DNA from: a virus
Taxonomy: Duplodnaviria > Caudoviricetes
DNA: 64,000 nucleotides
IMG/VR virus record: IMGVR_UViG_3300032038_000011
Coordinates: 32,001-96,000 of that record
Direction: 5' to 3' (one strand)
Made by a program: the position numbers and the translations under genes. Shown here in pieces: positions 24,635-43,307 of this stretch. The stretch's first letter is position 1. Every line of letters starts with the position of its first letter. The notes beneath the pieces were generated by a model. It did no database searches, was not told the origin of the DNA, and saw nothing but the letters and a program-made list of their open reading frames with translations.

Positions 24635-25006
24635 TTTTTTACACTCCTTTTTTGAAATTTTCTTTCAAAATTAAGGTATTTTTATTTATTTTTAAATTAT
24701 TTTAAATTATTTTATCAAATTTCCAGCTTTTTTCTTGTTGACTATGAGAAAAATTTCCAGCTCCTTTTCCAGCTTATTTCCAGCTCCTTACGGGGAAAAT
24801 ATGCGCGCGAAAACTCAGCTTGAACACACAACTTCCCTCCCCTCTTTCTAATACTATTATAACATAATTTTATATCCAAGTCAAGAAGTAGGTTTTAGTA
24901 TGGTAGCACTTTACTATGGTACTATGGTACCACTTTACCAGGGTGAAGTATTGTTAGGGGTTTGTAAATTAGAATGGCCGTTTAGTCTAATTTACGTAGG
25001 TTTAAC

Positions 25007-25035
25007 TTGACTTCTTGCGTGGTCTGTGCTATACT
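25007..25035 (+). promoter_or_regulatory. sigma-A-type promoter (representative of the cassette promoters)
   Basis: TTGACT-N17-TATACT with extended TG; -35 lies 10 bp from the core site, as in most units. Confidence 0.85.
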
Positions 25036-25065
25036 TATATCATCAAATGAAAGGAGATTTCAGAT

Positions 25066-25281
25066 ATGCCTTATAAGATGATTAAATGCCCGAAGTGTGG
25101 AGTTGAGGGAAGTTTTGAGATTGTCGCGGATTCTGCGCTTGGTTGGAACTATAACTATAATTGTTATAGTAAGATAGTTTTCTGTACTTGTCAGAATTGT
25201 AATACTTCCTTCTCTGCGGAAGAACTTTACGACATTATCGGATATGATGAAGATAGTGTTAAGATTGTGGAGGTAGTATAA
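25066..25281 (+). CDS. small zinc-ribbon protein
   Basis: CPKC...CQNC; AAAGGAG RBS. Confidence 0.65.
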   Translation: MPYKMIKCPKCGVEGSFEIVADSALGWNYNYNCYSKIVFCTCQNCNTSFSAEELYDIIGYDEDSVKIVEVV

Positions 25282-25282
25282 T

Positions 25283-25663
25283 ATGCGAAAGAATCATACT
25301 CATCGTGGATTTTATGTTAATCTGAAAAAGAAAAAAGTTACTGGAACTCTTTTGAAGGGTCGGACAGGGAAAAATATGAGTGTCCTTAAAATATATGAAT
25401 ACCGAGATTTTTTGTGGTATCTACATTTTAATGAATTTCAAGAGTATGGTTTGTTACTTCCTATCTATAGACTTCGTAAAAATTTGAAGTATCGAAAACC
25501 TATTATTAAAAGATGGGAAAAAGAATCGCGACACTTAAAGTGTCGTTTTATTTTTGTGTTAATTAAATTGTACGTACACTCTATTTTACCATACTTTAAC
25601 TTGACATATTACATACTATCTGCTATAATTGATTTATCAAATGAAGGGAGCGCAAGCGAATGA
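25283..25663 (+). CDS. hypothetical protein whose frame runs through a terminator, a site and a promoter
   Basis: ORF track; 3' part overlaps the hairpin at ~25528-25555 and site 25557. Confidence 0.4.
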   Translation: MRKNHTHRGFYVNLKKKKVTGTLLKGRTGKNMSVLKIYEYRDFLWYLHFNEFQEYGLLLPIYRLRKNLKYRKPIIKRWEKESRHLKCRFIFVLIKLYVHSILPYFNLTYYILSAIIDLSNEGSASE

Positions 25664-26357
25664 TTAGTGGAATTTTAACGGATATTTTGGGATATATTCT
25701 GTTTACAAGTTTTATTTTTTGTTTCTTTGGCGGCTGTGTTTACCTAATTATATATGGTGTTCGGCAATATTTAGAAGAAGAAGATGGGTTCTTTATTTTC
25801 GCAACTGTTATAGGATGTGTTGGCGCTATGATTGTTATAATTATCGTCTTAAAAGCTTTTGGACTATAATTGGAGGATATGTAATATGAAGAAAATTAGT
25901 TATAATGATGCTGCTTATATTTGCCGCTACAAAGAAAAGCATTTTTTTGAGAAGTATTTTTGTAATCATTATATTTGGATGAATAATCCAAATGAAGGAA
26001 TAATAAAAAAAGATATGAAAATTTGGTTTTATATCTTAACATTTATTCCTATCTGTATTCTTCAATTTATTTGTCTCTTGTGGGATGGTGGTATAAAGCA
26101 TTTTGAGATTCCTTCTATTAACATAATGGCTTATAACGTCACCGGACTAACTTCTGATAATGATGATACCACTATGTTTGGTAGGTTTAAGCAAGTATAT
26201 AATAAATAGCGGCAAAACCGCTATTTTTTTAATTATATGTAAATTAGATGTCACGTGTAATCTAATTCACGCAATTTTAACTTGACTATTCTAACTTTAT
26301 ATGTTATACTTATTTCAACAGATGAAGGAAAACATCTCAAACCAGAAAGGCATTAGA

Positions 26358-27008
26358 ATGTTTAAGTATGAGTGGGAAATTCAGGAAGCAAACAAAGAGT
26401 ATCTCGAACAGAGACAAATGTGCTTGGATGCTTATCAATCCATAGCAGAATGGGTTGGAGAAAAAGAAATTCAAACCGAAGTTAAAGGCACTGATGAAAA
26501 TATGTGCCGTTATATAGCCTTTGGTGACGTTGAACCGGAAATAGACGGTTACGAAAAAGGAATACTTTCAATTAATGCTCGTGTAGCTATTAAAAAGTAT
26601 TATACTTTTATCGAAGGTCAAGGTTATATACGGACGAAAGAATCTAATTTCATTGACCGTAGCGATCGCGACAAGTTCGAGAAAAATAATATTGAATATC
26701 CTAAAACTTGCGGTCTTTACATGATAGGGCAGACGTTTGTTAATCCTATCACTAATGAAAAGTTTTATTGGATTAAGGTTGGAGAAGCGCAAAATCTGGC
26801 ACGTCGTAGACATGATTACAATTCTATGACCGCTATGATTTGGGATATTGGATATTATACTAAAGATGATTTGACTGAATCTGAATGTCACGATAAATTG
26901 AAAGATATTGCCCTTCATCGTCATGCGGACGAATGGTTTTCTGTATCGCGCGAAAACTATTTGAAAATTTGCGAACAGGGCTTTGAATGGTTCAAAGAGG
27001 ATGAATAA
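26358..27008 (+). CDS. protein with C-terminal T5orf172/GIY-YIG-like domain
   Basis: GLYMIG...IKVGEAQNLARR...E..CH..L....DEWF; start reassigned after the CCAGAAAGG leader. Confidence 0.65.
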   Translation: MFKYEWEIQEANKEYLEQRQMCLDAYQSIAEWVGEKEIQTEVKGTDENMCRYIAFGDVEPEIDGYEKGILSINARVAIKKYYTFIEGQGYIRTKESNFIDRSDRDKFEKNNIEYPKTCGLYMIGQTFVNPITNEKFYWIKVGEAQNLARRRHDYNSMTAMIWDIGYYTKDDLTESECHDKLKDIALHRHADEWFSVSRENYLKICEQGFEWFKEDE

Positions 27009-27089
27009 TCCTCTTTTTTAATTTAGTGTAAATTAGACTATACGTATTGTTTAATTTACATTCGCTTAAAATTAAGGCGCTTTCGCGCC

Positions 27090-27269
27090 TTAATCTTTCA
27101 TTTCCTGAATATCTTCATCCCTTGTGTAAACAAGAACTTCCGTCCATCCCCAAGTTTTATTGCATTTAGGGCAAGTTCCATAACCAATATCATAATATGC
27201 GTGATTATGGTATTCGGTATCTACTACATCCTCAAAAGTAACTGTTTCGCCGCAATTAGGACATTTCAA
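27090..27269 (-). CDS. small zinc-ribbon protein (not in ORF track)
   Basis: TTG start, MKCPNCGETV...GTCPKCNKTW...EMKD*, 59 aa; paralog of the adjacent gene. Confidence 0.6.
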   Translation of the reverse strand: MKCPNCGETVTFEDVVDTEYHNHAYYDIGYGTCPKCNKTWGWTEVLVYTRDEDIQEMKD

Positions 27270-27270
27270 A

Positions 27271-27459
27271 TTAATCGACTTCCTTTATATCAGTTTCGTC
27301 ACTATAGATATAATTGACTTCATTCTGATAGGTACGTCCGCAAGTGGGACAGTGCCAAGTGTTGAATTGCGTCATAGTGGATGAACCACCAAAGTCCTGA
27401 TAGGTTTCAATCTCAACAAGCTCAAGTTCAGTATCGCAATGAGGGCAAATGTAATCCAT
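27271..27459 (-). CDS. small zinc-ribbon protein
   Basis: CPHC...CPTC. Confidence 0.65.
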   Translation of the reverse strand: MDYICPHCDTELELVEIETYQDFGGSSTMTQFNTWHCPTCGRTYQNEVNYIYSDETDIKEVD

Positions 27460-28036
27460 AATTATATATATTCCTTTCTTAAATTTTAGCTATTCTATAA
27501 TCGGGGCAATCTTGTTTATGTAATTTACATAAACGGTTATATGCTTCTTCATAAGAAGGCCAAGCCCATTTATAATTATCATCCGCTGGCGTCCAAAAAC
27601 TTCCACACATATCAACCCAAAGGATTTGAATTTGATACATAAAATTGCTCCCCTTTCGTTTTCTTGAATATATTATAGCATGAGATGGAATGAAAGTCAA
27701 GTTAATTTTCTGATATTTTCTATTTTTTCTTCAATCTGATATGAAACATATAGTTCTTTTTCAGAACGTATTTTCTTAATATATGCTTCTGCCTCGTCTT
27801 TGGTGTCAAAAGTTGCTATCAAAGTGTAAGTATCGCGGAAACCTTGACCGCCATAAACAACCTTATACACATGGTAATACATATCGGCTATAATTCTCAT
27901 TGACTTTCTCCTTTGCTTTTCTTGAATATAGTATATCATAGAAATACTTTGAAGTCAAGTTAATTATTAATTAATTAAAATGTACGTACCATTTAATTTA
28001 CATTTGCTTAAAAAGAAAAGGGCTTACGCCCTTTTC

Positions 28037-28438
28037 TTAACAGTGAGGACAATGAAGGCAATCATCACGGCATCCATAACAATAATCATCATCATCATAG
28101 TCATCATCATAGTCATCATCATCGTCGTCCTCGTCGTCCCAATCGTCGTCCTCGTCCTCGTCGTCATCCCAATAATCCTCGTCCTCGTCATAATCGACGG
28201 TCAGAAGGTCAGGATTCAGAGGACAACCATTGAGATTAACCATATAGCCCTCGTCATTTGCCGCGTCAATCGCGGAAATGATGTCGGTCAGAAGGCGGTC
28301 AGAATCAGCCTTGCGGGAATTGCGAATCGCATCATCCACCGCGTCACGCAGGGCAACCAGGGTCTTGATAGGCATATCAGTCAGAACCACGCCGCCGTTG
28401 ATGGAAGTGCCGCACTTGATGTTAGAGTTCATATTCAT
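28037..28438 (-). CDS. protein with very acidic C-terminal tract and Cys-rich end
   Basis: About 35-residue D/E-rich run followed by CYGCRDDCLHCPHC. Confidence 0.7.
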   Translation of the reverse strand: MNMNSNIKCGTSINGGVVLTDMPIKTLVALRDAVDDAIRNSRKADSDRLLTDIISAIDAANDEGYMVNLNGCPLNPDLLTVDYDEDEDYWDDDEDEDDDWDDEDDDDDDYDDDYDDDDYCYGCRDDCLHCPHC

Positions 28439-28826
28439 ATTGAATCCTTTCTCACTTGGGTTTGTTAAGTGTTTTCCTTCACTTGATGTTATTATTATAT
28501 CAGATGGAGTGGAGTTTGTCAAGTTAAGAGTTTGTTACTGTCTGCTTACCCACGCGGTAAGCATATCTACCGCGCAGCCAAAACCAACTGGAATTGCCCA
28601 TACCGCCCAATGATGGGGAACTTTACCCATCGTCCAAAGAATGAACACAATCGCACCAGTTACCTTAAACAAATTGATGTTTCTTGCTTGCATCTTAAAT
28701 TTCCTTTGGTTTGAAGTGTTGTCCTTCACTTGATGTATATATTATAGCATGGGTTTGGCTATTTGTCAAATTAAGAGTTGGTAAATTAAAATTGACGTAT
28801 GCTTTAATTAAATAGCACTTAACGTG

Positions 28827-29255
28827 CTACTTAATAAAGGTATCAATATCTGTTACTATTCGCGCGGAAACATAATGTTTCTTACAAGTTAAGGTTTCAT
28901 AGAAAGCCATATCTTTTTCATAGTTCTTATCAAAATCTAATATGGCATTCATGTTAGCTTGTATGGGATTAATATTGTATCTAAACTCCAAACGATTACG
29001 CCATGCTTTTGCGTTCTGTTCGGGAATGAGAAGTTCAAATTCAATATTCTGCTCCATAAGTCGGTTAATAACTGCTTGATGCGCGGAAATAAAGACATTG
29101 TATCCCGCAACACTAAGGTTATGAGCTAAAGCAACATAAAGATATTCCCATTTGTCTTTCTTGACAAAGTTAGAAGAATCTAAATCTATGGTAGTGTCAG
29201 GATTGTTACGACAATAGGTAGACTTTCCACAACCTTGATAGCCACAATAAATCAT
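28827..29255 (-). CDS. small P-loop kinase-like protein
   Basis: GYQGCGKST Walker A followed by IDLDSS. Confidence 0.7.
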   Translation of the reverse strand: MIYCGYQGCGKSTYCRNNPDTTIDLDSSNFVKKDKWEYLYVALAHNLSVAGYNVFISAHQAVINRLMEQNIEFELLIPEQNAKAWRNRLEFRYNINPIQANMNAILDFDKNYEKDMAFYETLTCKKHYVSARIVTDIDTFIK

Positions 29256-29373
29256 ACAATATCGCCCCTTTCATTATCTATTATACACATTTAGGGGCAA
29301 ATTGTCAAGTTAAACTTATGTAAATTAGAATCTACGTTAGGTGTAATTTACATAAACTTAAAAAGAAGGAGGA

Positions 29374-29733
29374 TTACTCCTCCTCCTTCTCCTTGGCTTC
29401 CTTTTCGGCCTTGGCCTTGGCCTTTTCGCGCTTGGCCTTGTCCTTAGCGGCCTTTTCGGCACGCTCGGCGGCCTTCGCGGCCTTCTTAGCCTGCTTGTCC
29501 TCATAGTCCGCAATCTCAGCGGCCATGAGTTCGGCGGCGGTCATGTCCTCGCGTTCCTCGGCCACGATGACGCCGATGCGGGCGTAGCGTTCCACGCCGT
29601 TGGAATCGGTCACAAGGCAACCGTACTGGCGGTCGTTAATCTTGTGAATACCTTCGACCTCGGAAATGTGCAGGGTGTTGAAGATAACGGTGCGGATGTT
29701 GGAATCGACAAGAGCCTTAGAAATCTTCGCCAT
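29374..29733 (-). CDS. protein with Lys/Ala-rich tail (paralog family)
   Basis: KKAAKAAERAEKAAKDKAK tail; similar to 34020-34322 and 34840-35295. Confidence 0.7.
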   Translation of the reverse strand: MAKISKALVDSNIRTVIFNTLHISEVEGIHKINDRQYGCLVTDSNGVERYARIGVIVAEEREDMTAAELMAAEIADYEDKQAKKAAKAAERAEKAAKDKAKREKAKAKAEKEAKEKEEE

Positions 29734-29826
29734 AGTAGGAAAATCCTTTCTGGTTTTTTAGTGTTTTCCTTCACTTGATGTATTCATTATAGCACGTTGT
29801 GTGCCTAATGTCAAGTTAAAAGTTTG

Positions 29827-29903
29827 TTACAAGAGCGTGGGTCTTACTGCGAATTTCGCGTAGCGCTCCGCGGTTATCGGCTTACTGCCCTCGCCCTTGG
29901 AAC
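29827..29903 (-). ncRNA. candidate ~75-nt structured RNA
   Basis: Own promoter and no ORF; closing stem CAAGGGCG/CGCTCTTG plus GGG/CCC; CAGTAAG occurs twice. Confidence 0.45.
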
Positions 29904-30018
29904 AATTATATTATAGCAGAAAATCCCACATAAGTCAAGTTAAAACATAGTAAATTACATTTGACGTTCTATCTAATTTACACTTGCTTAACAAGAAAAG
30001 ACCCTTGCGGGTCTTAAC

Positions 30019-31038
30019 TTAATATTTACAATCCAGTCCGGCATATTCGGCAAGCCGCCTCATGCGATTGACTAATCCTACGCAATAGGTAGACAAGGCT
30101 TTTTCCTGCTCTGCTGCTTCATCCTGTTTTGCGTCAACATAGCAAGCCATAGCATAATAAACGGTTTCACATTCGCGCTTGTCTGCCTTTTTCCTTCTCA
30201 TACAAAATTCATCAGTAGCGCCCAAGTCACGAAAAGGGAAAAACTTAATGCCTGGCGTTATGGCGTGGCGCTGTGCTATCTTGTGAAGTATGTAAGATTC
30301 AATGATAGCATCGTCAAGCGCGGTATGGCTTTCTTCAAAGTCGTATACATCGCAAAGGTATCTAAAAGTCGATTCGGCGGAAGTTTTGAAAAATGTTCCC
30401 GAATTAGTCAAAAGGCCATTTTCCAAACACTTGTTTTTATAGTTCACATTGTTTAACAAATGCGTTGTGGCAAGTCCCCACAAATCAAACATGGAATAAG
30501 TGTTGCCACGAAAACGAAAAATTTCCGCTTCAAAGTCGGGGTTACGCTGGTTTTTTTCGCCTTCCGCAATTCGCGCCGCACTTGCGCGTTGTATCTGTTC
30601 CCATTCATTATAGTTAGGACTATACAATTCCCGAATGTAAAGTTCAGTAAAAGGAATAGCCTTTTTGAAGTCGAACATTGCGTTAAATGCGCCGATTCCA
30701 TCCACCGAGGACATATCAGAAATGAAAATTTCCATAACTTCATCCCACGGTTTTATGCTGGTTTCGCCCTCTTTAAGCATATTAAGGTAAATCGGGCGTT
30801 TTTCCGCATAATACGCGGTATTGAAAATGGCAGGAACGGCGAAAGTTTCCGCAATCAGAAATTGCTTGCGCTCATAGATATTTCCTGCGCGGTCACAGAT
30901 AGTCCAGCCAATGTCATAAATCAAAGGTTTGGCAATGGCTATGCGCTTTTTGCGCTCAGGGTCGCCATTTGTGATTTCATCCGCAAAGGGCAAAGTTGCC
31001 GTTTCCGTATCGACTACCATAAATTTCAATTTCTTCAT
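30019..31038 (-). CDS. DEDDh 3'-5' exonuclease
   Basis: VVDTETA, AFNAMFD and HTALDDAIIE motifs. Confidence 0.85.
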   Translation of the reverse strand: MKKLKFMVVDTETATLPFADEITNGDPERKKRIAIAKPLIYDIGWTICDRAGNIYERKQFLIAETFAVPAIFNTAYYAEKRPIYLNMLKEGETSIKPWDEVMEIFISDMSSVDGIGAFNAMFDFKKAIPFTELYIRELYSPNYNEWEQIQRASAARIAEGEKNQRNPDFEAEIFRFRGNTYSMFDLWGLATTHLLNNVNYKNKCLENGLLTNSGTFFKTSAESTFRYLCDVYDFEESHTALDDAIIESYILHKIAQRHAITPGIKFFPFRDLGATDEFCMRRKKADKRECETVYYAMACYVDAKQDEAAEQEKALSTYCVGLVNRMRRLAEYAGLDCKY

Positions 31039-31189
31039 AAAAAGCCCTTTCTGGTTTGTCGTTGTTTTCCTTCAACTGTAAGTATATTATAGCACACCCA
31101 CCGTAGAATTGCAAGTTAAACTTTTGTAAATTAGACCTAACGTTCTATCTAATTTACATTAGCTTAAAAAAGAAATTAACCCTTGCGGG

Positions 31190-32236
31190 TTAATTCTTTT
31201 CGCGGATTGAATTAAGATGCTGCTGGTATTCCTTTTTGAAATTCTTTGCCGCTTCGTCCTTCGGCGTTGAATTACCAAAGGCAAGATACTGATAAATAAG
31301 ACCGTTGTTAGTAACTTCACAAGTTATATAAGACTTATCGGGGTCGTTTTTAAGGCGAACGGTTACAACGTGGGTATGGCCTTTATAAACCTTTTCCATA
31401 TACAGACGTTCAACGCAATTCCTTTGCGCTTCGCCCTCTTTGTGGAAATCCTCTTTTGTCAACAAGGGCTTGACAACAAAAGTATCATTTTCATAATAAA
31501 GCCATTCTTTATCATTATACTTTGCCAGTTCTTCGTTATAATGCGCATCCCTATATTCTTTTTCAAGATATTTAAGAACGGCATATTTAGTCAAAAAGTT
31601 CTTTTCGACTTCTACTTTACCAAACATTTTCATAGAAGTCTTGTAATACCAAGCTAACATATCCCTAATATAGCTTGCCTGATTATAACCTTCATACATT
31701 GCTTCCATGTGTTCACTAATAACACGATTCAAAGCAGTTTTAATATAATCAACAGGGAAATCAGCATTAAGCAAGGAAGAAAAAACTTCTTTCGCCCAAT
31801 CAGGCAAAGTATTAACGTACTGTTCATACTGTATCATGATAAGATACTTGTTAATTCTATAAGCATCATAATAATCATTGCAGTTTTCCTTAACATAATC
31901 TACAACCTTTTTAGTAAGGTTAAGTTTATTGTTAAGAGTTTCGGGTTCACTCGGAAACAGGCCCAAGCTCAAAAGCTGCTCAAAACGCGCGCCCTTTTCT
32001 TCATTATAAGCGGGGTCGTAAGAATGGGTAAACCTATTGCGATACCAATAAATGGCATAGCCCAACAAACCTTCCCTACGCCAAGTGGGCAAATTGTTAA
32101 AGGTAAAACACTTGGGAACACCCCTGACAGGCTTGCCAGACTTGCCGATAAACTGCCCGGTGGTAATATCCCACGCGCCGACCTTCAAAGAGCAATCATA
32201 AGCTACGATAAAATTACGTTCCTTAACAAAATTCAT
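31190..32236 (-). CDS. PcfJ-like domain protein
   Basis: C-terminal EGEAQRNCV..Y...YITCEV...Q....N motif. Confidence 0.7.
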   Translation of the reverse strand: MNFVKERNFIVAYDCSLKVGAWDITTGQFIGKSGKPVRGVPKCFTFNNLPTWRREGLLGYAIYWYRNRFTHSYDPAYNEEKGARFEQLLSLGLFPSEPETLNNKLNLTKKVVDYVKENCNDYYDAYRINKYLIMIQYEQYVNTLPDWAKEVFSSLLNADFPVDYIKTALNRVISEHMEAMYEGYNQASYIRDMLAWYYKTSMKMFGKVEVEKNFLTKYAVLKYLEKEYRDAHYNEELAKYNDKEWLYYENDTFVVKPLLTKEDFHKEGEAQRNCVERLYMEKVYKGHTHVVTVRLKNDPDKSYITCEVTNNGLIYQYLAFGNSTPKDEAAKNFKKEYQQHLNSIREKN

Positions 32237-32404
32237 TCTTAATCCCTTTCTGGTTTGTGTTGTTTTCCTTCAACTTTGTGAGTATATTATACACCCGATA
32301 TGGCTATTTGTCAATGCTTTTTTGTGTTAAGTATATATAAATTACACTATACGTTTAGTCTAATTAACATTCGCTAAAAGAAAAGCGCCCCGAAGGGCGC
32401 TGGA

Positions 32405-33113: not shown

Positions 33114-33187
33114 TTGACAGTAACAGTATATCAAAAATTGAACTAAAAGTCAAGTAATTTTTATGTAAACTAAAATGTACGTGCGAT

Positions 33188-33610
33188 TTAATTAACAAAT
33201 AATTTATCAAATGAATAATCCTTAAAATATTTAGAATTATTATTTTGATTATTTAACGGTTCTCTAATTCTTAATCTAATTTGCTTTTTATCTCCAATAT
33301 CTTCTATTGGAACAATTGCGATTAAATCATAAGTTTGATTTACAAAAACGAAATAATCTACCTCTCCAATATAAGTAGATAAGTTTTTATTTGTGGTATG
33401 ATTTGTAGAACTACGAGTATAACAACAAATAGCACCATTTTGTTCTTCATTACAAGTTTTAACTTGTATTCTATTGAATTTACCATTAAATTCTGCTATC
33501 ATATCATAGCGTTCATTATCTCCCCAAGGAATACAAACAGGAATATTATATTTTTGAAATTCATATAGTGCTTTTGCTTCCGATAATTGGCCTTTTGTTT
33601 TAGTATTCAT
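33188..33610 (-). CDS. PD-(D/E)XK endonuclease, I-Ssp6803I-like (group I intron-associated family)
   Basis: G..SE.KA......IPWGDNERYDMI.......RIQVKT and Y...VDYF motifs. Confidence 0.8.
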   Translation of the reverse strand: MNTKTKGQLSEAKALYEFQKYNIPVCIPWGDNERYDMIAEFNGKFNRIQVKTCNEEQNGAICCYTRSSTNHTTNKNLSTYIGEVDYFVFVNQTYDLIAIVPIEDIGDKKQIRLRIREPLNNQNNNSKYFKDYSFDKLFVN

Positions 33611-33693
33611 ATTATCACTCCTATGATAAATAAAATTAAGGGCTGGCGTAGGAGCGCCTTATCTCATTAGTCGCGAACTAATGCTACCCCTGA

Positions 33694-33768
33694 TGGTGGG
33701 GATAGTGGGAGTCGGACCCACCGTACCGAAATTAAAAGTTTCGTGCCATACCGCTTGGCTATATCCCC
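33694..33768 (-). tRNA. tRNA-Lys(UUU), atypical
   Basis: Full 75-nt cloverleaf GGGGATA/TATCCCC, anticodon loop CTTTTAA, encoded CCA; T-loop TCCGACT is non-canonical. Confidence 0.8.
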
Positions 33769-34019
33769 ATACCACTTGGCTACACCCTCATAAGTTTTGG
33801 GAGTTCCTTTCCTCTCCCTCAACTGTAATTATTATAGCAGAATTAGAATGAAATGTCAAGTATTGGGATAGTTAAGATTTGGAAAATTAGAAATTACGGG
33901 ATTTCTAATTAAAATGAAATTAACAGAAAAAAGTATTGACAAGGAAATGAAATTCTGCTATAATAATAACTGTCAAGAGGACAAGGAAAAGTCCTAAAAA
34001 CCAGAAAGGATTTCAACTT

Positions 34020-34322: not shown

Positions 34323-34839
34323 GCCTTCTTCTTTTAATTTATTGTAAATTAGGTTGAACGTATAATATAATTTACATATAGTTAAAATAATAAGGATTAA
34401 ATCCTTATTATCATTCTTTCTTTTTCTTTACTATAACGATAAGATTTTACTTCTTTATATTTAAGTTTGTCAGGAATTTCACTAACTAAACCAACGTATA
34501 AAGCGCGACTGGTGTTAGGGTTCCAAATAATTACACGATTAACAATAACTTTGGTTTGTGCTGCGCGGATTAATCCTGCTACAATCATTATTTATCTCCT
34601 TTCATAGCTTCACGACAAATCTGCTTCCCTTCTTTACGTTCTTGTTTTTTATTTTTCTTCTTTGCGGGCATCACAGAAGGGCGATAGCCACACCAAGTTT
34701 CACGGTTCTGATTTTTCTTTTCCATTATATTCCCTCTCTTTCTATAAATAGTATATACTATTTTCTTCAATAAGTCAAGTTAATTATTTGTAATATAGAT
34801 TAAACGTACAGTGTAATTAACATAGAAATAAAGTGACGG

Positions 34840-35295
34840 TTAAACCGTCACTTCGTGGGGCAGGAACTGATTGTTATCGTCTTTTTCTTCTTCTTCAGGG
34901 TCAGGTGCGTGAATCATAGCCTGAAGCCCTTCGGTGTTGAGTTTCTTAATCGTCTTTTTCGCGGCGCGCTTGCGCTCCTTTTCTGCTGCTTCGCGCTCGG
35001 CCTTTTCCTTGCGCTTTGCTGCTTTGTCAGCCTTATCGGCCTTGACAAGTTCCCATTCATCATGGGCTGCGTAACCGTCATAGGCATCATAACCGCCGTC
35101 ACCATTGCGGGAGCCGCGCGGAATAGATACCTTAATCAGCGCAAACTTTTCATTGCCTTCGGCATCGACAACAGGCATAGCGAGTTCGCTTGCGCTAACA
35201 TCCATCACATCAGCGTCGTAGTGTTCAGACAGAGCGGCGGTCAGAACGGCAAGAACATCATTGCGAATCGCGGTTTCCAGTGCTGCTTGTGTCAT
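34840..35295 (-). CDS. Lys/Ala-tail paralog
   Basis: 151-aa ORF with the conserved leader. Confidence 0.75.
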   Translation of the reverse strand: MTQAALETAIRNDVLAVLTAALSEHYDADVMDVSASELAMPVVDAEGNEKFALIKVSIPRGSRNGDGGYDAYDGYAAHDEWELVKADKADKAAKRKEKAEREAAEKERKRAAKKTIKKLNTEGLQAMIHAPDPEEEEKDDNNQFLPHEVTV

Positions 35296-35558
35296 AGCAT
35301 TTCCTTTCTGGTTTAGTGTTGTCCTTCACTTTGTAGGTATATTATAGCAGATTTGAGAGGAGAAGTCAAGTTAAATAATTGTTACGATAATTGCGGAAAC
35401 AATCAAAATGTCAACGGCAAGAACCAAATAGATAAACATTTTGTTTCTCCTTTCATTTTCTATAAATATTATAGCATAAATTCTGTTGCTTGTCAAGTAA
35501 ATTTTTTGTTAAATACATACGACGTATAATTTAATTAACTTGAAATTAAAAAAGGCGG

Positions 35559-35999
35559 TTATCCCGTCTTTATCATTTGTGAAAGAATTTCAAAAATCTT
35601 TTCCGGTTCATAAGCTCCATTTCCCCACGCTGTGCGGTTTCTTTCTTCATCATCAAAAAGAATCCCGCCGCCTGTTACTGTGAGTTTATTTGTGCCATAA
35701 CGTTCAATTTTAATATAATCAAAATTAACGGAAGGCAAATGTTTTGCTAACCAGTAAAATTTTGCGATACTGATTTTAACCAAAAAATCGTCCGAGCCGT
35801 GTTTAGAACCCCATGAAATAATACCGATTTCATGGCCTTGGGTTTGTAGTTTGTTAAGATAACGAGCAAGCAAACTCATGTTAATAAGAGGTTTTGCCGC
35901 ATTATAAGGCGTGGTATCTTCATTTTGAAGATAATTCAACCAACCTTCAACGCCGTAAAAATCCGCAATAGTTCCATCCATATCCAACCAAATCTTCAT
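35559..35999 (-). CDS. HAD-superfamily 5'(3')-nucleotidase-like protein
   Basis: DMDGTIADF motif I and ILFDD motif IV. Confidence 0.8.
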   Translation of the reverse strand: MKIWLDMDGTIADFYGVEGWLNYLQNEDTTPYNAAKPLINMSLLARYLNKLQTQGHEIGIISWGSKHGSDDFLVKISIAKFYWLAKHLPSVNFDYIKIERYGTNKLTVTGGGILFDDEERNRTAWGNGAYEPEKIFEILSQMIKTG

Positions 36000-36117
36000 A
36001 ACACAAAACCCCTCTCATTTGATGTATTAAGTATAACATATATGGATTAAGAAGTCAAGTTAAATGTTTGTTATTTAGATTGGACGTTTAACCTAATTTA
36101 CATATAATTAAAGTGGA

Positions 36118-36489
36118 TTATTCATCCACTTTAACCCATTCCATTGTGCGTGTATCATATCTAAACAGACCGACCGCGCAACTAAAATCTTCATTATATA
36201 TACATGCGCTGATATTTTCACGAATAAACTCTGTTTCATCATCTGTGAAACTACCATTTCTTCGACAAAAGACACAACAACCATAGGCATCATCAAGCCA
36301 TTTTATCCAATCTTCAACATCAGGAGAAGAGCCAGGAGGAAGAATTTCTTCCATATTTTTATCATAGAAAGAAATTTTATTAGCAATACTTAATGCTAAA
36401 CCATAACCGATATTTTCATACTGTATACACGCATGGTAGTTATCAAATTCTTTATCATCATAAGCATAATACATAGTAACCTCGCGCAT
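36118..36489 (-). CDS. hypothetical single-gene cassette
   Basis: 123-aa ORF between sites 36069 and 36559 with own promoter. Confidence 0.65.
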   Translation of the reverse strand: MREVTMYYAYDDKEFDNYHACIQYENIGYGLALSIANKISFYDKNMEEILPPGSSPDVEDWIKWLDDAYGCCVFCRRNGSFTDDETEFIRENISACIYNEDFSCAVGLFRYDTRTMEWVKVDE

Positions 36490-37755
36490 AATTTATATCC
36501 TCTTTCATTTGATGTATATATTATATGCCATTTAGAATAAAATGTCAAGTTAAAATATTATTATATAAAAGAGACGTATAGTTTAATTAACATTTATATA
36601 ATAAAAAACGCGGTTATTGTTCCGCGTTATAGAATACCAGTAAATCAATAGCATTATTGATTTCAGTTATTGCTTTATTAAGACTTCGCTTGGCTTCGGT
36701 TTCGTAATGTCCCGCGTCTTGCGTTATAATATCATCAATAGTCATATCACAATAGTCTCGTGCGCGAATAAGAAGTTCAATATCATATTTCATATTATTT
36801 ATTCTCCTTCCATTTTTCATATACTCTTACAAGTTGGTCTGCTGTAGCTAAAAGAGAATAGACATCTATTGCGTCTTGACTATTACCTTCAAAATCACTT
36901 GACAGCTCATTTTCCAGCTGATATAGTGTACGAATAGTAGCTTTCAGCTTTTCCAGCTGTTCAGTAGTAAGTTTCTTCATATCCAGCTCCAGCTCCTCTC
37001 TTTTTTCTATATATATTATACCAGCTTCCAGCTCAGAAGTCAAGTTAATAATAGGTTAAGTTCAGCTAAAATTAGGTAGCACTAACAGACCCGATACACG
37101 GGCCGCTTTACTTAATTTTAACAGCATCTTAACCAAAAATCAATCACTCCTTAACACAGTCATAACAATTCACCTTCTTTCCTATAATATTCCACCATTA
37201 TTAATTATACCAAATTTCGCAAGGGTTGTCAAGTTAAATGTTCGTAAATTAGAGTAGCCGGATAGTCTAATTTACATTAGCTTAAAAAAGAATAGGCCAT
37301 TGGCCTATTCCCAATCTTCATCAAAATTTAACATTTCCAAATCTTCATCGAAGAAGAGTTCCATGGCCTCTTCAAGTTCCTTAACGCCATCTTCATCAAA
37401 GATGTGGTTAATTCTGTCCATGTCGCGGGCCATGTGGTAAATCATGCGCCATGCGGTCTTAATGTTCTTTTTACGTCCATCTCTGAACCAATAGTCGTCG
37501 GCGTCAAAGTCCCACATGTTGATTTCAAACATGCCATTGTCGTAAATGTAACCATAAACCAAAACGTGGCGAATCTGAATCTGGAAAAACATTGTAAAAT
37601 CTCCTCTCATGTTGTCGTTATTGTTGAACCGTTTTTTATTTTATTATACCACAAAAAAATGATTTGTCAATAGTTTTTCTATGTTAAAATTACGTATATT
37701 AGAATATCCGGATATTCTAATTAACATAAAAATAAAAGAAGGCAGGCGCCTTCTT

Positions 37756-37938
37756 TTAATCCTCATAGGTGTCAGTGCCTGCCTGCCGGATTGCCCACCG
37801 CTTTGCGCCGGCGATAGTTTTGAATCCTTTGCCAAGTCGCCAGCCCCAAGTACCACCTTCACCAACGTGATACTTGCCATCAGGCATCGGGGTGTCATCC
37901 CAAGTATAGTAATGTTCGCGATTGCCGACTGTGTTCAT
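37756..37938 (-). CDS. small protein, paralog of 43610-43804
   Basis: HYYT.D..P..DGKYHVGEG...KT..GAK.WA shared. Confidence 0.7.
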   Translation of the reverse strand: MNTVGNREHYYTWDDTPMPDGKYHVGEGGTWGWRLGKGFKTIAGAKRWAIRQAGTDTYED

Positions 37939-38061
37939 GTGAGTTACCTCCTTCATTTGATGATTTATTATAACATGGATAGGGGTATATTGTCAAGTTA
38001 AAAGTGCGTAAATTAGATGATACGTATCTTCTAATTTACATATAGTCAACATAAAAGGGGA

Positions 38062-38280
38062 TTAACCCCTTATATGTTGCGAATTGAAAGCGGCAACAAT
38101 CTCCCGAATTGTGTCGTTTTCGTTAAGAAGCGCCAAAGTACAAAATACAACTTCGGGGTTCTCGATGTAAATGATATACGCGCCCAAAGCGGCGTTAAAG
38201 TCGTTTGTATATTCTACTTTGACTTCTTCTTCTTTGGTGTACATGGTAACAAACTTGGTGGTAATGCTGTACTTTTTCAT
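38062..38280 (-). CDS. hypothetical single-gene cassette
   Basis: Between sites 38007 and 38349, with promoter and RBS. Confidence 0.65.
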   Translation of the reverse strand: MKKYSITTKFVTMYTKEEEVKVEYTNDFNAALGAYIIYIENPEVVFCTLALLNENDTIREIVAAFNSQHIRG

Positions 38281-38400
38281 GGTATTAACTCCCTTCATTT
38301 GATGATTTATTATAGCATGAATTGACGCAGTTTGTCAAGTTAATTGTGCGTAAATTAGATAGTACGGTTATTCTAATTTACATGGAATTAAAAGAAGGGA

Positions 38401-38625
38401 TTAAATCCCCTCTTTGAAAGTCGTGACTTCGATATACATGAAATTTGCTTCGTTGGTATCGGGGTCACGATAGTAAATAACTGTAACTGTGTCACCATAA
38501 TCAAATCCTTCACACAGGTAGCCACAAATCGAAAGACGATTCATAGCAGCGGCGATAGCATGGTTCATGGTATCGCGGGCGGCGATGATTTCACTGTTCT
38601 CATGGATAACGAAAATGCTCTTCAT
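38401..38625 (-). CDS. hypothetical single-gene cassette, paralog of 39113-39361
   Basis: Shared M..AI..A and F.YG...T.I.Y pattern. Confidence 0.65.
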   Translation of the reverse strand: MKSIFVIHENSEIIAARDTMNHAIAAAMNRLSICGYLCEGFDYGDTVTVIYYRDPDTNEANFMYIEVTTFKEGI

Positions 38626-38763
38626 AGGTTTATACCCCCTTCATTTGATGGATATATTATACCATTTTTCAGTGTTAAAAAACAAGCAATTGGAAGTTAA
38701 ACGTTAGTAAATTAGAATCTACGTTTATTCTAATTTACATATACTTAATAAAGAAGTGGAGGA

Positions 38764-38982
38764 TTAATCCTCCACGTAAAATCGCGGGTAGCGACCGACC
38801 TCGCTGTTATTACAGTTATAATAACAAAATTCGTTGTAGAAATTGTTAAAATTGCGGAACATCCAACCGGGTTTCATGTGGACAGCGAATTGCGAATCAG
38901 GACGCATATTCGCGGGTACAATGATGAACGGCTTTTTTTGTTCGTAGAGTTTACGGGCCTGCACTTTGTTAATCTGTTTCAT
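38764..38982 (-). CDS. hypothetical single-gene cassette
   Basis: Between sites 38706 and 39051; GGAGG RBS. Confidence 0.65.
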   Translation of the reverse strand: MKQINKVQARKLYEQKKPFIIVPANMRPDSQFAVHMKPGWMFRNFNNFYNEFCYYNCNNSEVGRYPRFYVED

Positions 38983-39112
38983 GGGATTGCCTCCTCTCAA
39001 TTTCTGTATATATTATAATACATAAAAAGCTATATGTCAAGTTAAACATTTGTAAATTAGACTGGCCGTATAGTCTAATTTACATACAGATAATAAAATG
39101 GGCTTGCGCCCA

Positions 39113-39361
39113 TTAGGTTTCAAGTTCGGCTTCGGTGATAACAATTGTGCCGGTTTCGGTTGTGCTTTCAGAGTACAAGCGCGGGACAAAGACTTTGTAT
39201 TCGATGGTAGTGTAGCCTTCGCCATAGGCGAAGTCAGTTACTTCATAGTTGGCATGGTGCGCGTATTGGATAGCGTTTTTGATGGCGCTGTCCATATCTT
39301 TGCAGATGACAACAACATCGGCCTCGCGGTTATCATAGACGACATACAGGAACTTACTCAT
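39113..39361 (-). CDS. hypothetical single-gene cassette
   Basis: Between sites 39051 and 39439; GGAGG RBS. Confidence 0.65.
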   Translation of the reverse strand: MSKFLYVVYDNREADVVVICKDMDSAIKNAIQYAHHANYEVTDFAYGEGYTTIEYKVFVPRLYSESTTETGTIVITEAELET

Positions 39362-39949
39362 GGTAGTTACCTCCTTCATTTGATGTCTTATTATACCATT
39401 TTCAATGTTAAGAAGTAAGCATGATATGATTAAACGTTTGTAAATTAGATTCTACGGTTACTCTAATTTACATTGGTATAATAAAAGCCGCGCGGTTAGC
39501 TACTCCGCGCGGTTGGCTCGTTCGCGGTCAGTGCGCCACTTCTGCCGCGGGTCAGTTCACTTACGTTACGCGGGATTATGCTACAACTGCCACGTTGCAC
39601 ATTGTCCCTTGCTCTAATAGGGTGGATTCATTGTCAAGCACCTCAAACACTATTGCAGGACATTTAATGACGATGGAGGAACGGCTGACTACTGCGGTGG
39701 CTCGTTCATTCTTTATCTCCCCTTTCGACAAGTCTATTATAACATGAGATATGGGATGTGTCAAGTTAAACGTTTGTTAATTAGATAATTTGTTTTGGGA
39801 AATGAAATAGGATTTTATTTGTAAATAATATGTTAATTTTGGGAAAAGAAATATAAAATGAAATTGGAAAAAGTTAAAGGAAAGTAAAATAAAATTGACG
39901 TTGAGTGTAATTTACATAATATTAAAATGAAATTGCGGTTTCCCGCAAT

Positions 39950-40258
39950 TTACCATGTACACATTACTTTTAACATTCCATTGTCTATTTTAATTACGGT
40001 CGAAAAACCAAGTTCTTCTAATTCTGATTTTAGACCTATTTTCAAATAATTTTGTGATTCTTCTGAAACAAGTCCCATACACAGCAGATTAAAATCATCG
40101 GCTGCGCTTTGATAGCCGGCATTAGCTGCGGCAAAATTTGCTTCGTTCATTTTATATAATACCGCAGGAACAAAATCGTTTTTAATACGATTGTATTCGG
40201 CAAGACGAGCATCAGAGGAAACCTTGCGAAGAGTAGCGGCATTGTAGATAGGCGTCAT
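39950..40258 (-). CDS. hypothetical single-gene cassette
   Basis: Between sites 39883 and 40329; AA..GY...LEELGF..W resembles the 21899-22404 proteins. Confidence 0.6.
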   Translation of the reverse strand: MTPIYNAATLRKVSSDARLAEYNRIKNDFVPAVLYKMNEANFAAANAGYQSAADDFNLLCMGLVSEESQNYLKIGLKSELEELGFSTVIKIDNGMLKVMCTW

Positions 40259-40392
40259 ATTTATAATCTCCTTTGCTTTTCTTGTATATAGTATATCATA
40301 TATATAAAAGGGCGTCAAGTTAAATGATTATTAATTAGACTATACGTTCAATGTAATTTACAGAAAAGCAAAATAAAACGCGGTTGCCCGCG

Positions 40393-40656
40393 TTAAGGTT
40401 TCTTTGTACAAAGAATAACTTTGGAGTAGTGAGTGAGATATGTAATACCGTTCATTGTAAACTGAACGACATCAGATTCGTCAAAGTCGCGCCATGACGT
40501 TACTGTGCCTTCAATAAGTTCGCCGTTGCCGAGTTCAAGAATTGCGTGGGTAAAAGTCTGGGTTGTGTCCCAACCAACTTGGCGATTGCCAACTCGGCAA
40601 GCAGTCAGCGCGAGAGCAAGGGAGAGAATGAGAACCACACAAATAATCTTCTTCAT
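40393..40656 (-). CDS. putative lipoprotein
   Basis: Signal peptide with lipobox LTAC. Confidence 0.7.
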   Translation of the reverse strand: MKKIICVVLILSLALALTACRVGNRQVGWDTTQTFTHAILELGNGELIEGTVTSWRDFDESDVVQFTMNGITYLTHYSKVILCTKKP

Positions 40657-40837
40657 TTTGGGATACCGTTCCTTTCTTTTTTCTTGAATTTATTATAGCA
40701 TAATTATTTTGAAATGTCAAGTTAAAAGGTTGTTAAATAGAATTGACGTTTGATGTAATTTACAATTGTTTAACTTGACATTTCGGGATTGCTATGTTAT
40801 AATGATTACAGAAATTAAGAGAGCGAGGTAATTTGAA

Positions 40838-41026
40838 ATGAAAAGAAAGTGCTACGTTGTTGAAATGAACTCCGCGCTGGATGGTCTGTTTGAACAGTTG
40901 GATGATTACGGTTTTGATTATGAATGTGAAGAGCATTGGCCCGCGCCCGGTTATATAGAAATTTACGTGCTGTATTATCCTCATGAGATTCGGGACTTGG
41001 AAAATATTTTCGCGCCGTATGTTTAA
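40838..41026 (+). CDS. small acidic protein, inverted single-gene cassette
   Basis: Between sites 40731 and 41050, with promoter TTGACA at 40775. Confidence 0.7.
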   Translation: MKRKCYVVEMNSALDGLFEQLDDYGFDYECEEHWPAPGYIEIYVLYYPHEIRDLENIFAPYV

Positions 41027-41777
41027 CATACGGTTTTATTTTGAAATTATGTTAATTAGAGGATACGTAGTATCTAATTTACATTGAATTAAAATTATGG
41101 GATACATCAAAAGATGTATCCCTGCATCATTTCATCAAATTCTGAAAATGAAATGCCGTTTTCGTCGGGGTCAAGAATGTTCGCCTGATAGTCCCAATAA
41201 ATACGCACCTGTTCCTCAGAAGTCAGATTTTCCCACTCCATACGGGATACCTCGCTTTCGTTTGTTTGCAAGATTATTATAGCAAAAATAAAATGAAATG
41301 TCAAGTTAAATGATTATTAATTAGATTATACGTGCGGTCTAATTAACAGGAATTTAAAATAAAATTGCGAAACTTTTTATGTTTCGCAATTTGAAATTGA
41401 AATTAAGGAATTAATATTTCCTTAACATCCCATTTCATTCCCGTGCAATGCGTGCGCCAATTTGCCGCATTTTGTGCCTCTTCGCGCGTGCGATAGTAGG
41501 AAGAACCTTGAAAACCACCACAATAGATTGCATACACTGTCATTTTAGGAAAATCCCCTTTCGTTTGTTTCTGAAATTATTATATCATTTTTGAAATGAA
41601 ATGTCAAGTTATTTTTATGTAAAATAGAACTTACGTTTAATATAATTTACATAAATTTAATTTGGGTTAGTTTTGGGATTGTCTAAATATTGTCATAATA
41701 AAAACTTTAAAAAGGGTTTGATTTTGAAATTAGTTTATGATATAATATATATAGAAAAGCAAGGGAGGTTTTGGGAT

Positions 41778-41957
41778 ATGCGCGCGAAAGACTATAAGAA
41801 AAGGAATAGTTTTTCATATAAAATTAAAATGTGGTTTTATCGGCTGACTTTTCGGGATGTTATGTCTACCAGTAAAATTGTTATTATTTCTATAATAAAT
41901 TTTATAATGGCGGTTTTAGGATTCTTAATCCTCTTTTTTGGCCCGTCATTTCTTTAA
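41778..41957 (+). CDS. small membrane protein, inverted cassette
   Basis: GGGAGG RBS, hydrophobic C-terminus; between sites 41618 and 41995. Confidence 0.55.
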   Translation: MRAKDYKKRNSFSYKIKMWFYRLTFRDVMSTSKIVIISIINFIMAVLGFLILFFGPSFL

Positions 41958-42055
41958 GAAAATGAAATGAAATTAGGGTGTGAGGTTTCGGGAATGTAAA
42001 TTATATCATACGTATTTTATAATTAACAAAAATAAAATAAAATAAAAGGTTGGAA

Positions 42056-42355
42056 TTACTTCCAACCTTCCATATATCCTGCGTATCGAATCATAACAAT
42101 TTCATCATCGTAAATGGTAGGCGTGTCACGTTCTTCCATTATCGCGGCGACAATATCACCGCAGTCGAAATCTTCGATTCCTTGCCATATCCATTCATTG
42201 CCATTGAAGTCTACGAGAACCATAAAGTTCTGTTCGTAGTTAATTAAGTCAACTACGAAAGCTTGAGGATACTGTTCTGCGCTGGCACAAGCCACAATTC
42301 CCATAAAGATAGCACAAGCAACAACGATACACCAAACAATAACAAACTTCTTCAT
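42056..42355 (-). CDS. putative exported protein
   Basis: Signal peptide ending ASA; between sites 41995 and 42424. Confidence 0.65.
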   Translation of the reverse strand: MKKFVIVWCIVVACAIFMGIVACASAEQYPQAFVVDLINYEQNFMVLVDFNGNEWIWQGIEDFDCGDIVAAIMEERDTPTIYDDEIVMIRYAGYMEGWK

Positions 42356-42473
42356 ACTATATACTCCCTTCATTTGATGGTATAAGTATAACATATATAT
42401 AGTATGATGTCAAGTTAAACTACTGTAAATTAGATAATACGTTTACTCTAATTAACATAGAGTTATCGCGGAT

Positions 42474-42713
42474 TTAACCTCCGCGATAATTTGGATGAAC
42501 TCGTTCGTATGCACTAACTTTTCTAAAACTGTTATATTCTTGTTGCGTTATCTCTTTGCCGAATATAACCATTTTAGTGTGCTTAACACTTGGCATTTTT
42601 CGCGCTTTGTCGCAAGCCTCAAGCAAATTATTTGCTTTGAAAACAAACTTAATTTCAGTGCTTCGACCTGTTCCGCAATGTCCACGATGACAAACGACTT
42701 CAAAGTATTTCAT
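42474..42713 (-). CDS. hypothetical single-gene cassette
   Basis: 79-aa basic ORF between sites 42424 and 42784. Confidence 0.65.
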   Translation of the reverse strand: MKYFEVVCHRGHCGTGRSTEIKFVFKANNLLEACDKARKMPSVKHTKMVIFGKEITQQEYNSFRKVSAYERVHPNYRGG

Positions 42714-43307
42714 GGTTGTTACTCCCTTCTTTTATTCTGGTTATATTATAACATAGTTCTTGACCTTTGTCAAGTTATGTTTATGTTAATTAGGTTGGAC
42801 GTTTAATGTAATTTACATTAGCTTAATTTCCAGTTCCAGCTTTCCAGCTCCATATAAATGTTAAGTTTATGTTAAAGTTTCCAGCTCCAATGTTAATTTT
42901 ATGTTAATTAGAATGCGGCTTCCAGCTCTCAGTTCCAGCTCCCAGCTCGCGGCCGCGCCGGAGCCGAGGAACTTCCAGCTCCACGCAAATTTCCAGCTCC
43001 CCACCGGCACGCCGACCGGAGCCGAGGCAGGCCAAGGGCGCCCGCGCGAACCGAGCAAATTTACGCATAATTCATATTCTCTTAACATAGCTTTAACAAA
43101 CCTCGCTTCTGAGGGCATATTCCCCCATCCTCTATATTATAGCAGATAAATGTTAATTGTCAAGGTAGTTTATGTTAAAAGTATGTGAATTAGATTAAAT
43201 TTAACAAAGTTAAGCTGACGTAAATTAGACTGCCCGGATAGTCTAATTTACACAGGCTTAATGTTAGTGGTGACTAACTACTATGTTAAAAAAAAGAAAA
43301 GAGGGCG

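Follow-up and report, generated by a model that had tools for sequence, protein, structure and literature searches.

In the virulent Firmicutes phage phi29, which has sigma-A promoters, the small protein p4 contacts RNA polymerase from inverted-repeat sites upstream of the -35 boxes at A2c, A2b and A3, switching early transcription off and late transcription on; its four sites lie at one control region. Stoperators, found in temperate phages, are 13-bp asymmetric sites at which a monomeric immunity repressor blocks elongation in one orientation, and their motifs co-evolve with the repressor. For Cluster A mycobacteriophages, excerpts of two reports describe one stoperator motif in dozens of intergenic copies that vary by lineage (PMC9283540, PMC6550527). 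In Bacillus phage SPbeta, the 15-bp SPBRE motif gave about ten ChAP-seq peaks and is bound by the recombinase-fold repressor MrpR, which maintains lysogeny (PMC10516654). Promoter-early stem-loops (PeSLs) are known from T4-type phages, where insertions, deletions and replacements at these elements have been ascribed to homologous recombination (Arbiol et al. 2010, PMC2839356; Comeau et al. 2014, PMC4122927). Here we describe a repeated palindromic element, the dyad site, in 64,000 nucleotides of viral DNA (the window) that span bases 32001-96000 of the 136,935-bp IMG/VR record IMGVR_UViG_3300032038_000011 (Duplodnaviria; Caudoviricetes; G000 below), which is estimated to be 80% complete. The dyad sites separate small gene cassettes in an 18-kb block, and we favour, with moderate confidence, the reading that each is an operator-like site for a candidate phage regulator, set within a terminator-promoter module of the PeSL kind, which doubles as a seam for recombination.

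A single confined array of CG-centred sites

The core pattern TGTAAATTAGA-N5-CG-N5-TCTAATTTACA, with up to three mismatches allowed, matched 25 times in the window and never in shuffled sequence. A position weight matrix (PWM) was then built from the matches and identified 32 sites, all scoring at least 15.8 bits, while the best score in shuffled genomes was 10.8 bits. Two further degenerate sites, at 28780 and 33881, have a CG centre and promoters in register, and the resulting 34 sites all fall within 24963-43252 (Table 1). When the PWM was run over the whole 136,935-bp record, no dyad site was found outside the array, and in each of the five records with the same motif described below the sites likewise formed a single array. 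The initial annotation had counted 34 sites and noticed none elsewhere in the window; the count was reproduced, and the confinement now extends to the full record.

The full site, about 52 bp long with a core of 34 bp, is built of the centre, inner arms of sequence TGTWAATTA at +/-8-16 and, at +/-22-25, an outer TTAA. The central CG, preceded by A or C and followed by T or G to give (A/C)CG(T/G), was present at 34 of 34 sites in the window and at 180 of 180 sites across six related records, where a site lacking the CG could still have passed the PWM threshold. The unchanging CG on the axis that had been claimed at the outset is also seen beyond this phage. Among the 180 sites, T-14, A-12, A-11, T-9, A-8 and A-6 and their mirror positions were near-invariant as well, and the outer TTAA was conserved on both types of flank. 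The consensus proposed initially was right about the outer TTAA and the CG, but the G of its inner TTAGA is only a preference.

Genome-wide, in G000 and its relatives, GATC occurs at 0.1-0.5 and ACGT at 0.4-0.76 of expectation, a scarcity that points to restriction avoidance. Every dyad centre keeps ACGT or CCGG despite the general scarcity of ACGT.

Promoters and terminators in fixed register

Read outwards from the core, the promoter flank usually has the sequence N5-TTAAC-TTGACA-17 bp-(TG)nTATAAT; a leader, a ribosome-binding site and ATG come next, and the outer TTAA abuts the -35 box (TTAAC-TTGACA). The opposite flank begins with N5-TTAAAA and continues into a GC-rich hairpin, which terminates the neighbouring unit. 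Of the 180 sites in the six records, 118 combine a promoter flank with a terminator flank; promoters occupied both flanks at 6 sites and terminators both flanks at 11, the remainder being partial. Under a laxer promoter definition, 154 of 180 sites had at least one promoter. In an independent consensus scan, the interval 24900-43300 contained 23 perfect TTGACA/TATAAT promoters, and terminator-like hairpins numbered 42 in the same interval compared to 13.7 +/- 4 in shuffles.

The spacing is strict. The distance from the core to the start of the -35 hexamer is exactly 10 bp in 125 of 151 promoter flanks, and 21-22 bp, longer by about one helical turn, in another 19. With the 10-bp spacing, the core spans about -46 to -79. 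The initial annotation had stated that the promoter usually lies exactly 10 bp away, which agrees with these counts, and that every unit has a promoter, which does not hold for all: 81-86% of sites carry their own consensus promoter and 14-19% have no adjacent one.

Most units are read leftward, with three rightward units at the left end. One inner cassette (40765-41048) is reversed, resulting in a promoter/promoter site at 40731 and a terminator/terminator site at 41050. The motif ATCAAATGARRG recurs in nine cassette leaders, extending into the ribosome-binding site (at 25042, 25636, 36023, 36513, 37961, 38303, 38649, 39384 and 42378), and the repeated module therefore reaches about 75 bp past the dyad. 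Outside the array there is a second class of promoters, represented by dozens of near-perfect copies of AATAT-TTGACT-17-TGnTATAAT in G000, G001 and G005. These have neither the dyad nor the TTAAC and are located in replication and other modules. The dyad thus marks a subset of the strong sigma-A promoters, which suggests that the host-sigma promoters fall into two classes differing in timing or regulation.

Cassettes vary as units among relatives

An exact-pattern scan of viral contigs returned five further records with the same motif, each with one array of 9-42 sites. Two of these relatives are complete, at 184 and 181 kb, with 31 and 37 sites. When cassette interiors from the six records were clustered, 174 cassettes formed 76 clusters, 32 of them singletons. 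The order of the backbone is conserved, and whole cassettes have been inserted, deleted or replaced, with a few translocations. Between G000 and G004, which are about 90% identical, alignment blocks stop at the sites, as at 39084/39442, and G004 has about 3.3 kb of extra cassettes between the positions matching 39084 and 39442. It is therefore the cassette that varies as a unit, as the initial annotation had supposed; in the comparison of cassette order and content by which it had proposed to judge this idea, whole cassettes differed along a conserved backbone and the breakpoints lay at the sites. Exact identity between modules had a median of 10 bp and a maximum of 27, suggesting that exchanges are rare events at short homologies, as proposed for PeSLs.

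Related loci use other palindromes in the same place

With the sigma-factor-like protein at the right boundary of the array region as an anchor, we collected 38 loci, each with 10 kb of the array side. Only some of them carry the motif described above (type A). The rest share this layout but have different palindromes ahead of the same TTGACA promoters. Type B (G006, G008 and others) is a 32-bp element, TGTWAA-N4-CTGGCCGGCCAG-N4-TTWACA, and type B loci have up to 30 copies of GGCCGGCC in 10 kb versus 0 on the structural side. Type C (G009) is a GCCGGC-centred element with AGTTA/TAACT boxes. Type D (L067, L071) is 21 bp long, TTTAGATGT..ACATCTAAA, and lies at a fixed 27 bp in 29 of 32 promoters, and type E (L080) is 22 bp long, TTTACTGTAC..GTACAGTAAA, at 31 or 41 bp. 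Type D is without a central CG, and the invariant CG is thus a lineage trait and not part of the architecture.

The centre varies in concert by genome between ACGT, CCGG and GGCCGGCC. It is ACGT at 30 of 31 sites in G001, 25 of 32 in G000 and 31 of 42 in G004, and CCGG at 28 of 37 sites in G005. Arrays are also exchanged as whole modules, because G006 and G000 are 90-97% identical on both sides of the array, yet the array of G006 is type B. If phage-encoded, the cognate binder should therefore lie inside the array. Apart from one 2.2-kb contig of a metagenome-assembled genome (MAG), the exact type-A motif was absent from 185,579 bacterial and archaeal reference species genomes, which argues that it is not the operator of a host regulon. 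That lone reference match, L091 (JAZLEM010000151.1), comes from a MAG labelled Acetobacter sp. and may be a misbinned phage fragment.

A candidate operator and the search for its binder

The sites, their phasing and pattern of drift, their lineage-specific variants and the mosaicism of the cassettes are observed directly, and from them we infer protein binding, the kind of binder and the direction of regulation. A sequence-specific putative DNA-binding protein, probably phage-encoded and array-linked, would dock at each site as a dimer or a dimer of dimers and would govern how RNA polymerase makes its upstream contacts, simultaneously at about 30 early promoters. A timed shut-off would be the most likely effect, activation a less likely one. 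At promoter-less junctions, the bound site could act as a boundary, a roadblock or a looping partner. The module of terminator, dyad, promoter and shared leader would supply short homologies for general recombination, through which whole cassettes may have been gained, lost and replaced, in the way described for T4-type PeSLs. Behind its own proposal, the initial annotation had listed two alternatives, an operator in many copies and a promoter-linked shuffling element like the PeSLs, and it is these that the evidence favours.

Several observations weigh against an operator. The binding protein was not found: nearly every array gene is an ORFan or encodes a small zinc ribbon, and no DNA-binding domain could be recognised in those array genes that are universal or restricted to type A. 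The site lies upstream of the -35 box and the promoters are already consensus, so that neither simple occlusion nor the need for an activator is obvious. The spacing of the inner arms, 25 bp between their centres, does not correspond to complete helical turns. The 26 of 180 sites without a flanking promoter have a median score of 34.6 bits compared to 34.7 bits for the rest, and an adjacent promoter is thus not the sole reason that sites are kept. Finally, the short exact homology between modules is a poor substrate for classical homologous recombination.

The search for a binder covered genes both inside and outside the arrays. Proteins of about 65 amino acids (aa) with an Xre-like helix-turn-helix (HTH) and a conserved KWL(H/N)G occur outside the arrays in all genomes, at differing positions (Table 1), and nothing was found that connects their genes with the dyad sites. 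The type-D-specific open reading frames (ORFs) had no family match, the C5 methyltransferase (PF00145) and OmpR-type winged-helix (PF00486) families had none in the phage genomes searched, and searches of PDB sequences and the protein atlas gave no match.

A number of candidates were rejected. The PD-(D/E)XK nuclease (33188-33610) was considered as a dyad-acting enzyme, but its array copy is found in G000 only, with weak distant matches elsewhere in G002 and G005; this gene resembles a free-standing homing-type gene. The 339-aa protein (30019-31038) was considered as co-varying with site type, but type-B arrays carry a shorter paralogue and the protein has the residues of a DEDDh exonuclease. 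The 62-aa protein of the inverted cassette is encoded in every type-A array and in G006, but it is acidic and absent from the other type-B to type-E loci. A 72-aa basic protein is present in a type-D locus too, and a GC-rich 190-aa protein is just 25-31% identical among phages with identical arms. The idea that the arms form a promoter for the phage sigma-like protein was dropped as numerology.

Weighing the rival explanations

The initial annotation had proposed an integron- or shufflon-like platform, and the geometry invites it. The site is symmetric, falls in the range of 26-50 bp with a common central dinucleotide as expected of a serine-recombinase site, and with about 25+2+25 bp and inner and outer half-site motifs it looks like that of a large serine integrase. 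In addition, the cassettes are the units of variation with breakpoints at the sites, and promoter-less sites are as well kept as the others. Nevertheless, we consider it very improbable that a dedicated recombinase pairs the dyads and exchanges strands at the CG, with excision, insertion or inversion in the manner of an integron, shufflon or serine integrase. In six-frame hidden Markov model (HMM) searches, each of which detected its family in control genomes, PF00239 (serine) and PF00589 (tyrosine, the family of MrpR; E<=0.01) had no match in G000, G001, G002, G004 and G005, of which G001 and G005 are complete, and PF01548 (IS110-type DEDD) and PF00665 (rve) had no match in the four complete genomes G001, G005, G008 and G009. 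For the serine and tyrosine families, the lack of a recombinase that had been reported for the window thus extends to the whole record. At junctions with one shared neighbour, the spacer beside the shared cassette had an identity of 0.48-0.59, compared to 0.44-0.46 for random pairs and 0.72 for syntenic sites. Strand exchange at the CG would move each half-spacer together with its own cassette, and the near-random spacers therefore indicate that crossovers did not occur at the centre. Single junctions break to the left of the core, inside it or to its right, so that the switch points scatter across the module. Orientation was kept in 167 of 168 homologous cassette pairs, although a palindromic site and core should invert as easily as delete. 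The fixed 10-bp link to the -35 box has no role in recombination, and some related lineages are without a CG at the centre. An integron is also a poor fit in other respects: there is no IntI-type PF00589 match, the cassettes mostly have their own promoters and do not depend on a shared Pc, and, unlike in attC, the sequence itself is conserved and the symmetric positions show no compensatory covariation. The platform was thus not borne out, given the off-centre junctions, the collinear pairs and the missing recombinase. One could still imagine a cassette-exchange system run by an enzyme of no known recombinase family, such as an array ORFan, that breaks or pairs DNA at the CpG-centred palindrome, with later gene conversion having scattered the junctions and with the centres ACGT, CCGG and GGCCGGCC as specificity classes that keep exchange among compatible phages; we rate this a shade less probable still.

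The pattern of drift bears on whether a protein is involved at all. The 11-bp arms are complementary, and the site follows a terminator, where read-through transcription could reach it, so the palindrome could form an RNA hairpin for processing or termination, or a DNA cruciform. At the variable symmetric positions (spacer, -7/+8, -13/+14 and -17/+18), however, there was no excess of complementary pairs (z -2.8 to 2.9), and the compensatory changes expected of a stem were seen only at -1/+2, where the covariation arises because the centres are concerted and genome-specific. Moreover, the 12-nt spacer lacks self-complementarity (0-2 of 4 pairs in 148 of 180 sites), the site lies beyond the U-tract of the intrinsic terminator and the dyad has no Rfam match, and we regard a structured nucleic acid as the least credible of all the explanations. 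Half-sites that drift independently around a centre that changes in concert fit a co-evolving DNA-binding protein and not an RNA or cruciform stem. A purely PeSL-type explanation without any trans-acting protein, in which the palindrome is just a cis component, such as a symmetric UP-like or curved element, of a mobile terminator-promoter module and persists because duplication and recombination spread these modules, has a small but real chance of being correct. Contacts of the alpha-CTD are made at -40 to -60, where the AT-rich arms are positioned, and the composite of terminator and promoter, the ORFan cargo and the indels at modules are all PeSL-like. UP elements, however, require neither dyad symmetry nor an invariant CG at -62; the centre switches per genome, relatives hold the position but swap in other perfect palindromes, promoter-less sites are conserved, and the strong promoters outside the array manage without a dyad. 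A host protein is another candidate, and a rather improbable one: phosphorylated WalR or a similar response regulator of the OmpR family could dock beside the -35 box and couple early transcription to host growth. The half-site WGTTAA-N5-TGTWAA resembles the WalR/VicR consensus TGTWAH-N5-TGTWAH of Firmicutes (PMC4168254), a phylum to which the host may or may not belong. The inner hexamer is perfect in 240 of 360 half-sites and the outer has exactly one mismatch in 274 of 360, but both are perfect in just 5 of 360. The promoter-proximal box pair covers about -35 to -51, the region from which OmpR-type activators act, and the phage has no OmpR-type winged-helix match of its own. Six of the seven exact matches to the consensus in the genome fall within the array, but this consensus has a low information content in AT-rich DNA. 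It also leaves the invariant CG, the inner TTA-A, the dyad symmetry and the genome-specific centres unexplained, related lineages use unrelated palindromes, and the full motif is absent from bacterial genomes.

Cassette cargo and neighbouring genes

The roughly 31 cassettes mostly encode small ORFans and zinc-ribbon proteins. The exceptions are a DEDDh exonuclease-like protein, a PcfJ-like protein and the PD-(D/E)XK nuclease (PF11645, E 4e-29), whose gene adjoins a tRNA-Lys(UUU) gene (33188-33768) inside one cassette; one more protein had a weak nucleotidase-like match below the Pfam cut-off. The tRNA was the sole Rfam match over the sequence. Two paralogous array proteins, 34840-35295 (151 aa) and 29374-29733 (119 aa), combine an uncharacterised N-terminal domain and a Lys/Glu-rich tail, and are present in all array types, the most distant included. 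An open frame of 126 aa (25283-25663) crosses a terminator, the dyad site at 25557 and the promoter that follows; it is unlikely to be a genuine gene.

The sigma-factor-like protein used as the anchor corresponds to phrog_5767, has a zinc-ribbon-like C-terminal tail and lies between the array region and the terminase and portal genes in every relative. Adjoining the array, at 43308-45001, is a leftward operon of five small genes with about 53% G+C in a genome of 33% G+C. Its genes are separated by copies of one hairpin (GAGGGCTTGCGCCCTC), and the operon is variable among close relatives and has no family match. The portal protein is 24-31% identical to those of large Enterococcus, Lactococcus 949-type and Bacillus siphoviruses. 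A megablast search of GenBank phages with the array gave no match. The family is nevertheless large, as metagenomes contain about 2,680 relatives of one array gene.

Table 1. Dyad sites and other features, in window positions unless a genome is named
Feature	Position	Strand	Score (bits)	Left flank	Right flank	Remarks
Dyad site 1	24963..24996		43.9		rightward promoter	left end of array
Dyad site	25557..25590		27.5	terminator	rightward promoter	
Dyad site	26238..26271		35.8	terminator	rightward promoter	
Dyad site	27027..27060		41.4	terminator	terminator	convergent junction, no promoter
Dyad site	27969..28002		22.5	leftward promoter	terminator	
Degenerate dyad site	28780..28813		9.3			leftward promoter at 28769, -35 box 10 bp from core
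Dyad site	29319..29352		39.4	leftward promoter	terminator	
Dyad site	29949..29982		35.8	leftward promoter	terminator	
Dyad site	31125..31158		41.7	leftward promoter	terminator	0 mismatches
Dyad site	32336..32369		39.7		terminator	leftward promoter, -35 box 22 bp from core
Dyad site	33164..33197		23.3	leftward promoter		
Degenerate dyad site	33881..33914		11.4	promoter (33859)	promoter (33936)	each 21 bp from core
Dyad site	34343..34376		40.7	hairpin	hairpin	no promoter; classifier scored left hairpin alone as terminator
Dyad site	34789..34822		34.1	leftward promoter	terminator	
Dyad site	35507..35540		23.4	leftward promoter	terminator	
Dyad site	36069..36102		37.1	leftward promoter	terminator	
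Dyad site	36559..36592		15.8	leftward promoter	terminator	weakest of the 32
Dyad site	37243..37276		43.3	leftward promoter	terminator	CCGG centre
Dyad site	37693..37726		36.3			CCGG centre; leftward promoter 22 bp from core
Dyad site	38007..38040		42.1	leftward promoter	terminator	
Dyad site	38349..38382		42.1	leftward promoter	terminator	
Dyad site	38706..38739		40.4		terminator	sole promoter is an extended -10 further left
Dyad site	39051..39084		47.2	leftward promoter	terminator	best match; one edge of G004 insertion
Dyad site	39439..39472		43.9	extended -10 promoter	terminator	other edge of G004 insertion
Dyad site	39883..39916		25.8			no detectable promoter
Dyad site	40329..40362		38.9	leftward promoter	terminator	
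Dyad site	40731..40764		34.0	promoter	promoter	divergent promoters
Dyad site	41050..41083		39.5			convergent junction, no promoter; kept in all type-A relatives
Dyad site	41315..41348		37.3	leftward promoter	terminator	
Dyad site	41618..41651		35.1	leftward promoter		
Dyad site	41995..42028		34.1		terminator	no promoter
Dyad site	42424..42457		42.9	leftward promoter	terminator	
Dyad site	42784..42817		39.6	leftward promoter		
Dyad site	43219..43252		43.8			CCGG centre; right end of array
413-aa conserved P-loop protein	23393..24634	-				left boundary of array
339-aa cassette gene	30019..31038	-				DEDDh exonuclease motifs D10, E12, D123, H238, D243 (invariant)
62-aa acidic ORF	40838..41026	+				sole cassette opposing the leftward block; in all type-A arrays
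447-aa sigma-factor-like protein	45553..46896	+				right boundary of array region; anchor for finding relatives
Xre-like HTH	2346-2441	-				also G005:73766, G006:8261, G008:82314

Implications and comparison with described systems

If the operator reading is right, an abundant family of uncultivated phages of about 180 kb would have its whole early gene set under one switch. That switch would consist of an unusually long, CpG-centred operator, present in about 30 copies in helical register with promoters of the host type and diversified by lineage. Such phages would offer a natural system for how virulent phages time and insulate their early genes, for the co-evolution of operator and regulator specificity outside lysogeny, and for regulatory modules that double as seams for swapping anti-host genes.

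The sites share a length of about 50 bp, symmetry, an invariant central dinucleotide and cassette-sized intervals with the att sites of large serine integrases, integron attC and shufflon sfx. They differ from these in that no recombinase was found, crossovers are off-centre, inversions are almost absent and cassettes have their own promoters; fixed-geometry palindromes between phage cassettes should thus not be read as recombinase sites without evidence from junctions. Like the SPBRE, which is bound by one master regulator, the dyad is a repeated element in the promoter regions of many phage genes, but it occurs at 34 sites, is 34-52 bp long and comes without a PF00589-like gene. With the stoperators, as the excerpts cited above portray them, the array has in common dozens of intergenic copies of one motif that differ by lineage, but the sites here are 34-52-bp palindromes upstream of the -35 box and no repressor gene was found. 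Both the stoperator and the SPBRE systems also differ from this one in that the present phages show no sign of lysogeny, with no integrase match and no copies in bacterial genomes. The p4 sites of phi29 are likewise inverted repeats upstream of a sigma-A -35 box, but the array here has about 30 sites of another sequence and length, and no p4-like gene was recognised.

The PeSLs are similar in most respects. Both combine a terminator stem-loop with a strong early promoter for the host sigma factor in a repeated unit, both are crowded into a plastic region of small ORFan genes, and in both the variation between relatives, including indels, ends at the modules. PeSLs, however, have no conserved long dyad, and their stem-loop is the GC-rich terminator itself. 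In the phages described here, which are large and siphovirus-like with Firmicutes-type promoters, a separate AT-rich, CG-centred palindrome of 34-52 bp lies at a fixed distance between terminator and promoter.

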